From a virus (lineage: Duplodnaviria > Heunggongvirae > Uroviricota > Caudoviricetes): DNA of 64,000 bases. The notes under the pieces are model-generated. The model was given only the letters and a program-made list of their open reading frames with translations. It was not told the DNA's origin and ran no database searches. Where the stretch lies: IMG/VR virus record IMGVR_UViG_648028025_000005. One strand, written 5' to 3'. The position numbers and the translations under genes were made by a program. This document shows, in pieces, positions 44,201 to 45,221 of the stretch (its first letter is position 1; each line of letters opens with the position of its first letter).

Positions 44201-45221
44201 CTACTTGCTAACCACGAGCGGCAAATCCAGTGTTGGTGTGATTTTTGTTTTACGATCGTAAATCAACACCTGATTTTCTGTTTTATGCCCGCTGAAAATT
44301 TGTTTGTCGCGACTGCTGCCTTCGTAATCTGAGATCCCCTTGGCTTTTATGTCGTGAAAATTGCACCCGAACGGAACGCCAACTTTTTGCTCGGCTGCGC
44401 GTTTAGCCTGATTCCACCAGTTATTCAGCGTTTTAGCTATGACTTTCCCGCCTTTGGTTGTATTGATCACATATTCGCATGTACAGGAAGATACATTTCG
44501 GGCTAACTGGATCGCTGTACGTAATCGCGGTGACCATTCCTTGATTTGTTTGGTGCCGGTTTTGTTTTGCTCAATGTAGATCCCTTTATCCATAATATCC
44601 TGCCATTTCAACTCAAGCACATCACCGAGTCTTGCCGCACAGAGATAGGAAATCTCCATTGCAATGCGTAACTGTGGAATTGCTTCCGCATATATCGCCG
44701 CATACTGTTCATCGGTGATGTAAACAGTGCGGGCTTTAAGAGAGAATTTTCTGACTCCTTTGCATGGGTTATTCTTCACATACCCACGCTCATATCCCCA
44801 CCCGTATACTCGACTCAGGCTTGCCAGTTCATGATTTGCCTGGGTCTTTGCTCTCAAGCCCTCGTTTATCCATGAAAATTCTTACCTGCTCAGTTTTGAC
44901 ATTATCAGCAAGCACTTTTCCGAATACCATCAGCAACGCCTTCTGATGTTGTCGATAATCTTTTTGGGTTCGGGGGGCCAGTTCTGTAAATGCAGGGGAG
45001 TCCATAAACATGTGCCATAATTTAGCTACGGTCATTATGTTGTGGAGTTTTGCTTTTTCCAGTTCATAATTTTGCCAGACTTTAGCTACGCTGGTTTTCC
45101 GCACTCTTCCTAGCCCTATACTTCTTGTACTTCCTTCGGGTTTCCACACGTAACTGTAACCATTCGATCTAACCCGCGGTGGCAGTACATTATCTTTTTT
45201 ATTTTTTCTTGGTCTTCCCAT
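44201..45221 (-). pseudogene. int: tyrosine integrase of prophage B, interrupted by a frameshift
   Basis: N-terminal 130-aa ORF (44829-45221) and C-terminal 218-aa ORF (44201-44857) overlap in different frames; C-frame closed upstream by TAA; catalytic region has HDIK instead of HxxR. Confidence 0.7.

Follow-up and report, generated by a model that had tools for sequence, protein, structure and literature searches.

The closest described counterpart of the integrase gene analysed here is that of prophage Sp4 of the O157:H7 strain Sakai (ECs_1055, CP-933M type), whose product is also found as WP_001299351.1 in O26, O103 and other Shiga toxin-producing strains of Escherichia coli (STEC). Circular, excised Sp4 was observed after mitomycin C treatment by Asadulghani et al., who ascribed the excision to the Sp4 integrase (PMC2669165). 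Integrases of the same clade occur in Salmonella phage ST64B (Sb28) and Pectobacterium phage ZF40, which are temperate and inducible, have intact int genes and come from different hosts. ZF40 came from an induced lysogen, and excision of ST64B has been measured by attP qPCR (PMC12455584). Among approximately 12,000 tyrosine recombinases compared by Gibb et al., the box II position Arg II is occupied by Arg in 99.1% and by Lys in 0.5% (PMC2943603). The Cre mutant R292K shows activity in vivo as well as in vitro, if moderately; it has a ligation defect, and the covalent intermediate accumulates (PMC2943603).

A second point of reference is provided by insertion sequences of the IS629/IS1203 type. 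Insertion of IS629 duplicates 3–4 bp of its target (PMC3271280). In STEC, the IS-excision enhancer IEE, which has microhomology-mediated end-joining activity, promotes the excision of this element (PMC9943667), and a strand-switch model acting at microhomologies has been proposed for IS excision (bioRxiv 10.1101/2023.06.07.543989). The excision of IS629/IS1203 via IEE goes back to Kusumoto et al. (2011), as cited in these two reports and in PMC9397093. Strains of O26:H11 carry iee on SpLE1-like elements (PMC9397093).

The window, by which we mean the whole stretch of 64,000 nucleotides that was analysed, contains the int gene of a prophage, here called B, at 44201–45221 (− strand). The gene is that of a lambda-type tyrosine integrase and is 1021 bp long, compared with 1020 bp in intact alleles. 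As present, it is without a single uninterrupted frame and has a +1 frameshift after codon 125. A preliminary description of the window had reported an N-terminal part of 130 aa and a C-terminal part of 218 aa in different frames, overlapping by 29 nt, with a TAA closing the second frame upstream; the list of open reading frames and our own translation both agree with this. The N-terminal ATG frame (44829–45221, − strand) encodes 125 native residues followed by the out-of-frame residues DPGKS and a TGA. Its product would retain the putative arm-binding domain along with a portion of the core-binding region and is without the catalytic domain. The catalytic domain is encoded by the C-terminal frame (44201–44857, − strand), which is closed by the TAA at 44882–44884. 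As the sole start of this frame is a TTG with GAGGG one nucleotide upstream, its independent translation is unlikely, and the product, even if expressed, would miss half of the core-binding domain.

A gene in the xis position (45199–45441, − strand; 80 aa, DUF4224) overlaps the start of int by 23 nt and appears intact. Lambda likewise has an xis-position gene upstream of int and overlapping it, although the protein here is a DUF4224 protein and not lambda Xis. By program, the xis-position reading frame extends over 45199–45579 (− strand), giving 126 aa from an upstream ATG, with the DUF4224 match confined to residues 51–94; RefSeq annotates 80 aa.

The whole int protein aligns with lambda Int structures from residue 1 (1Z1B, E = 5.6e-20), and this alignment runs over the full length from the arm-binding segment to the catalytic domain, at an identity of ~25% (1Z1B, 1Z1G, 1P7D, 1AE9). 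Pfam PF00589 (Phage_integrase) matches the C-terminal part with 33.5–34.9 bits against a cut-off of 27.1. The arm-domain structure 1KJK gave a weak match (E = 0.048), and Phage_int_M, with 14.6 bits, remained under its cut-off. In the numbering of the intact protein, the catalytic set comprises R197, K220, H289, K292, H312 and Y321, of which R197, K220, H289, H312 and Y321 align with lambda R212, K235, H308, H333 and Y342. The codon of the catalytic tyrosine Y321 is intact (44258–44260, − strand). Box II (H289-D-I-K292; CAC GAC ATA AAA) is encoded at 44345–44356 (− strand), with the K292 codon at 44345–44347. Here, FHDIKAKG aligns on lambda FHELRSLS, so that K292 falls on lambda R311 (Arg II); the earlier observation of a Lys where HxxR is usual was therefore correct. 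Box I reads YLCAAR, compared with VVTGQR in lambda, and was noted in the region of 44798–44812 (codons 194–197 of int).

Prophage B is a lambdoid prophage and the second of a tandem pair, A and B, at the serT tRNA-Ser site of an O26:H11-type STEC. The att-type junction between the two prophages lies at 43995–44059 (− strand), and identity with the yccA-side junction of relatives starts at 43995. Within it, 44000–44059 is a 60-nt copy of the 3′ part of serT, tRNA-Ser(UGA); no complete tRNA was found at the 43995–44059 junction. Past the serT copy follow a TccP2/EspF-repeat gene and tail fibre genes of prophage A, which assigns int to B. The gene order is that of Sp4 (yccA/serT-type att, int, DUF4224 gene, exonuclease), whereas the window copy is a pseudogene with an extra base and lies second in a tandem array, not beside yccA. 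In the O26 strain RM8426, prophage A, the first of the array, has an intact int beside yccA, ~4 kb to the left of the window start.

Several further features of the two prophages were recorded. The phage-borne serT 3′ copy has its own terminator-like hairpin (43960–44059; ggggctaccatttggtaacccc); the chromosomal serT counterpart reads GGGGTTAGCATTTAGCTAACCCC, and the differences leave the stem paired. The serT 3′ segment is 91% identical to tRNA-Ser regions in thousands of genomes. At the right end of prophage A, 42645–43397 (− strand) encodes a 250-aa type III effector of the EspF-repeat/TccP2 type, in which a proline-rich repeat of 47 aa occurs in three near-identical copies; an EspV pseudogene fragment comes next. 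Each prophage has one lambdoid late-region tRNA cluster (14380–14629 and 62392–62643). The first tRNA of these clusters is Met(CAT) according to ARAGORN and Ile according to RefSeq in relatives; the other two are Arg by both.

The window stops inside prophage B. In RM8426, the nearest complete genome, a search for the right-hand att of B revealed no copy of the serT segment within 40 kb to the right of the window end; there, the prophage borders on ymdF and rutG, and wrbA is not annotated (~26000–27600 of the segment 1245000–1285000). In the normal order, that of K-12, ~36 kb of chromosome (hya, app, tor and others) lies between serT and wrbA/ymdF. This suggests a deletion or rearrangement between prophages at the right end in RM8426.

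The two frames of int trace back to a single base. In alignment with intact alleles of 1020 bp, the gene strand has an extra A, with GAGAGCAAAG in place of GAGAGC-AAG. On the plus strand, this is an extra T in GGGTCTT[T]GCTCTC, where the TT of intact alleles has become a TTT run (44847–44849), the proposed IS-excision scar. We used as reference the intact allele of O103 WL1467 (1020 bp; annotated as tyrosine recombinase WP_001299351.1), from which the int of the window differs by one synonymous-type SNP and the extra A. The extra base is the sole frame-breaking difference from intact alleles, and its deletion in silico brings back a single frame of 339 codons. An alignment to intact homologous integrases, which the preliminary description had named as a check, thus locates the defect precisely. 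The WP_001299351.1 allele was present in three of the loci compared.

At exactly this point, about 33 complete O26-type genomes have a 1310-bp IS629/IS1203-type element flanked by a CTT duplication. The complete genomes closest to the window are O26-type STEC, and many of these bear the element in int, where its annotation is that of an IS3-family transposase with programmed frameshifting. Among 5,426 complete genomes, the IS junction was found in 31 at 100% and in two at 94.4%, among them RM8426 and strain 12689, the nearest relatives of the window. The uninterrupted segment, which is one base shorter than that of the window (61/62 match), was found in 522 of the same 5,426 genomes.

Two of the interrupted loci, L001 and L011 (RM8426), read GGGTCTT[TGAACCGCC...GGCGGTTCA]CTTGCTCTC and, in a second rendering of the borders, GGGTCTT[TGAACCGCCCCGG ... 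CCGGGGCGGTTCA]CTTGCTCTC, with ends of the IS629/IS1203 type. Their flanks rebuild the intact allele, GGGTCTTGCTCTC, which indicates that the IS entered an intact gene and not the +1 allele. An insertion into a pre-existing +1 allele, with a duplication of 3 or 4 bp, was also considered; the flanks do not fit it. The match of the window to the left flank extends up to 44850, and that to the right flank reaches back as far as 44848, giving an overlap of TTG at 44848–44850. On the left, this TTG is made up of the two T's that end the left duplication copy and the TG that opens the IS (cTT-TGaacc); on the right, it sits in the right duplication copy, C-TTG-CTC (ttcaC-TTGctc). Joining TTG to TTG drops the IS together with two of the three duplicated bases and yields GGGTCTTTGCTCTC, which is exactly the sequence of the window.

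We therefore consider it probable, at roughly 0.75, that the frameshift is the scar of an imprecise IS excision. The Lys at Arg II does not contribute to the defect. The history would have begun in an ancestor with the insertion of an IS629/IS1203-type element of the IS3 family, 1310 bp long, at codon 125 of int, which gave rise to the CTT duplication. The element would later have been lost through a join of the two TTG triplets that straddle its borders. With this join, the IS would have gone along with all but one of the three duplicated bases, and the extra T that remained shifts the frame by +1. The most parsimonious order, from which the direction is deduced, would run from the intact through the IS-interrupted to the +1 state.

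The case resembles IEE-promoted excision of IS629/IS1203 in several respects: an IS3-family element with a 3-bp duplication is missing at a position occupied in close relatives, a microhomology of 3 nt serves for the junction, and the serotype is known to carry iee. We infer from this likeness that IEE may have been involved in the loss; iee was not found in the 64,000 nt of the window. The published examples of such excision that were consulted stress precise or simple excision and flanking deletions, and a +1 junction of this form was not found in them.

The position of the window among IS-bearing and intact strains was assessed with both prophages. Positions 1–25000 were matched in one piece by O26 RM8426 and strain 12689 only, and both of these strains carry the IS in int-B. 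The match includes an IS1203/IS629-type element resident in prophage A (7157–8465; 1309 bp, TAT target duplication), which is 96% identical to the int-interrupting IS of relatives. About 25 other close relatives are without an IS1203-type copy at 7157–8465; among complete genomes, the copy is common to RM8426 and 12689 only and serves as a lineage marker. In the prophage-B half (44848–64000), the window is separated from RM8426 by 1 SNP and from strain 6629, which also carries the IS, by 3 SNPs. Its distance from strain 8479, where int-B is intact in the same tandem context, amounts to 2 SNPs and the indel. Placement by these prophage-B SNPs was rejected, 1–3 SNPs in 19 kb being too few by themselves, and the shared IS at 7157 is more informative. 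The window thus appears, as judged from sequence comparison, to be a member of the IS-bearing lineage, a nesting that rests on those 1–3 SNPs and the one shared IS insertion.

The main alternative is that the extra T arose by replication slippage, or as a spontaneous 1-bp insertion, in an intact int and independently of any IS. A change from TT to TTT at the same dinucleotide would give an identical sequence, and strain 8479 provides an intact allele in the same tandem context. Prophage integrases often frameshift, and in O111:H8 SF26 102-1 (3245–4260) an int of the same type is inactivated by a different, 4-bp deletion at gene positions 641–644; this separate deletion indicates that the int type decays repeatedly. 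However, the insertion is placed precisely inside the 3 bp that the IS duplicated at its target. The intact gene has 195 homopolymer runs of at least two bases, 130 of them of length two and seven of length 5–6, and the insertion falls in the two-base run inside that duplication, two-base runs being the class least prone to slippage, whereas the seven longest runs are far more prone to it. For random slippage to hit this run would be a coincidence of about 1 in 200, and a rarer one still if longer runs are favoured. All nearest relatives, moreover, carry the IS. Slippage had been put forward in the preliminary description as one possible source of the frameshift; because of where the extra base lies, we regard plain slippage as unlikely, and less likely than the scar of an IS629-type element.

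Considerably less credible is a +1 ribosomal slip, in which tRNA-Lys on AAA-G would yield some full-length Int and, with it, a low level of autonomous excision. Re-pairing of AGC AAA on AAG would indeed restore both the native frame and the native residue (S-K-T-Q). Against this, the sequence has no recognised +1 shift site, slippery heptamer or stimulatory element, and the A site is occupied by neither a rare codon nor a stop. The gene is also single-frame at this point in the 522 genomes, so that the two-frame arrangement is not conserved. Transcriptional slippage needs more than three A's.

A sequencing or assembly error in the source genome, which would leave the gene truly intact, had also been suggested, and we consider it very unlikely. 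The +1 allele was found in none of 5,426 complete RefSeq genomes, and its lineage can therefore not be placed among finished genomes. Homopolymer errors are also seen in related PacBio assemblies: RM8426 is short of single G's at window positions 28111, 31786, 32557 and 41703, and RefSeq calls the tail genes there frameshifted, which probably reflects long-read homopolymer errors and not biology. However, only the +1 allele gives the 130-aa product, as an allele with the IS would be expected to stop at a TGA right after K125, and this product was found on at least 24 contigs (41 blocks) in assemblies of NCBI, ENA and Logan that stem from independent projects and different assemblers. Seven of these places were inspected, of which two are NCBI drafts, two are metagenome contigs of ENA and three are Logan assemblies; all contain GAGAGCAAAGACCC, and one NCBI draft contig is identical to the window over 2840/2840 positions. 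Such a recurrence in independent assemblies makes a private sequencing error very unlikely.

Some of the +1 contigs (L015, L016 and L018) have SNPs at 45018, 44363 or 45313. These are the exact positions that separate the int–xis regions of prophages A and B in RM8426. Independent origins of the +1 allele on different SNP backgrounds were therefore rejected, and the variants probably reflect mixed assembly paths through the two copies, or gene conversion. Two ENA metagenome contigs (PRJEB23207) have the +1 int with a B-type exonuclease directly beside yccA. This could mean that the array lost prophage A in those strains, or that the assembler followed a mixed path through the repeat; as the path crosses the 1.3-kb int–xis repeat, the contigs are unsafe as proof of an excision of prophage A.

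The idea that Lys at Arg II is itself inactivating, so that this integrase type would be dead even in frame, could draw on the 99.1% conservation of Arg II and on the merely moderate activity of Cre R292K, which piles up covalent intermediate (PMC2943603), but it is hardly tenable, as the Lys is invariant across a large clade that keeps the other five catalytic residues, is present in phages from induced lysogens, and stands in the identical protein that serves Sakai Sp4, which excises, as does ST64B.

In detail, Lys occupies the Arg II column in 120/120 close homologues (55–100% identity) from Citrobacter, Klebsiella, Salmonella, Cronobacter, Dickeya and others. All of these keep Arg I, the catalytic Lys, His II, His III and Tyr, and are single-frame at the site of the lesion. 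Among 117 full-length representatives of 50%-identity clusters (29–54% identity), 86 have Lys and 29 have Arg, with the other catalytic residues largely kept (109–117 of 117 by position). The motif FHD[LI]KAKG is common to the integrases of four phages, ST64B, ZF40, Fostie and Evi, those of ST64B (50% identity to the int described here) and ZF40 (44%) having FHDLKAKG; the integrase of Pseudomonas phage LESphi2 (30% identity) has Arg at this column. The repaired protein of prophage B is identical to the Sp4 integrase over 339/339 residues, the box II Lys included. Being the known 0.5% minority state, a Lys at this position does not exclude membership of the tyrosine recombinases, and its conservation in a clade with members that excise means that it is no evidence of a defect. 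The suspicion that the preliminary description had attached to the box II Lys is thus not borne out. Judged from these alignments, the Lys is a normal, conserved active-site residue of this integrase clade, and intact copies of the type are likely to be active.

The clade also differs in box I. At the position of lambda T209, which precedes Arg I by three residues, Cys replaces Thr in 89% of the K-type and 0% of the R-type representatives of the 50%-identity clusters. Next to this Cys, at the position of lambda G210, an extra Arg is found in 48% of the K-type against 0% of the R-type. Such co-occurrence in the alignment, which for Lys and Cys is nearly perfect, suggests a coupled change of box I and box II. 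Tentatively, the HD[IL]KAKG integrases (Sp4/CP-933M, CP-933U, ST64B and ZF40 types) might therefore be viewed as a natural lineage that works with Lys, aided by the coupled box I change, a reading that we regard as possible but somewhat doubtful. A literature search on integrases with a box II Lys had as its sole find the Cre mutagenesis paper with its family statistics.

For prophage B itself, translation that ends after 125 native residues implies that no functional Int is made, and we infer that B can neither integrate nor excise alone. This upholds the earlier proposal of an excision-defective prophage as far as autonomous excision is concerned, B having lost its own full-length Int. Beyond that the proposal does not hold, as in relatives the neighbour encodes an identical Int: the product of intA in RM8426 is identical to the repaired B protein. 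The B-side att segment (43995–44210) is 99% identical to the yccA-side one. With an identical Int in A and nearly identical att segments, the Int of A could act on B in trans or excise A and B as a unit. B could thus be mobilised by its tandem neighbour, if A encodes the same Int here as it does in the closest relatives.

The locus is known in kind, an ordinary pseudogene in a prophage, derived from the familiar lambdoid integrase of the Sp4/CP-933M type. That small polymorphisms in STEC arise from the insertion of IS elements and from their IEE-promoted loss is established, and the current understanding of these processes is unchanged. For the biology of insertion sequences, the locus offers a clean natural case of IS removal, in STEC that carry IEE, without restoration of the gene. 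For annotation, a Lys in box II should not mark this integrase type as dead. The possibility of a compensated K-type active site could concern the whole clade and not the window copy; if true, it could show a natural tuning of the ligation or covalent-intermediate step. The three states of int-B (intact, IS-interrupted and +1 scar) could serve as lineage markers within O26:H11. As regards enterohaemorrhagic E. coli, prophage B, which lies beside the TccP2-carrying prophage A, would have lost its autonomous mobility through an IS insertion followed by an imperfect loss of the IS, and may still rely on the Int of its tandem neighbour.
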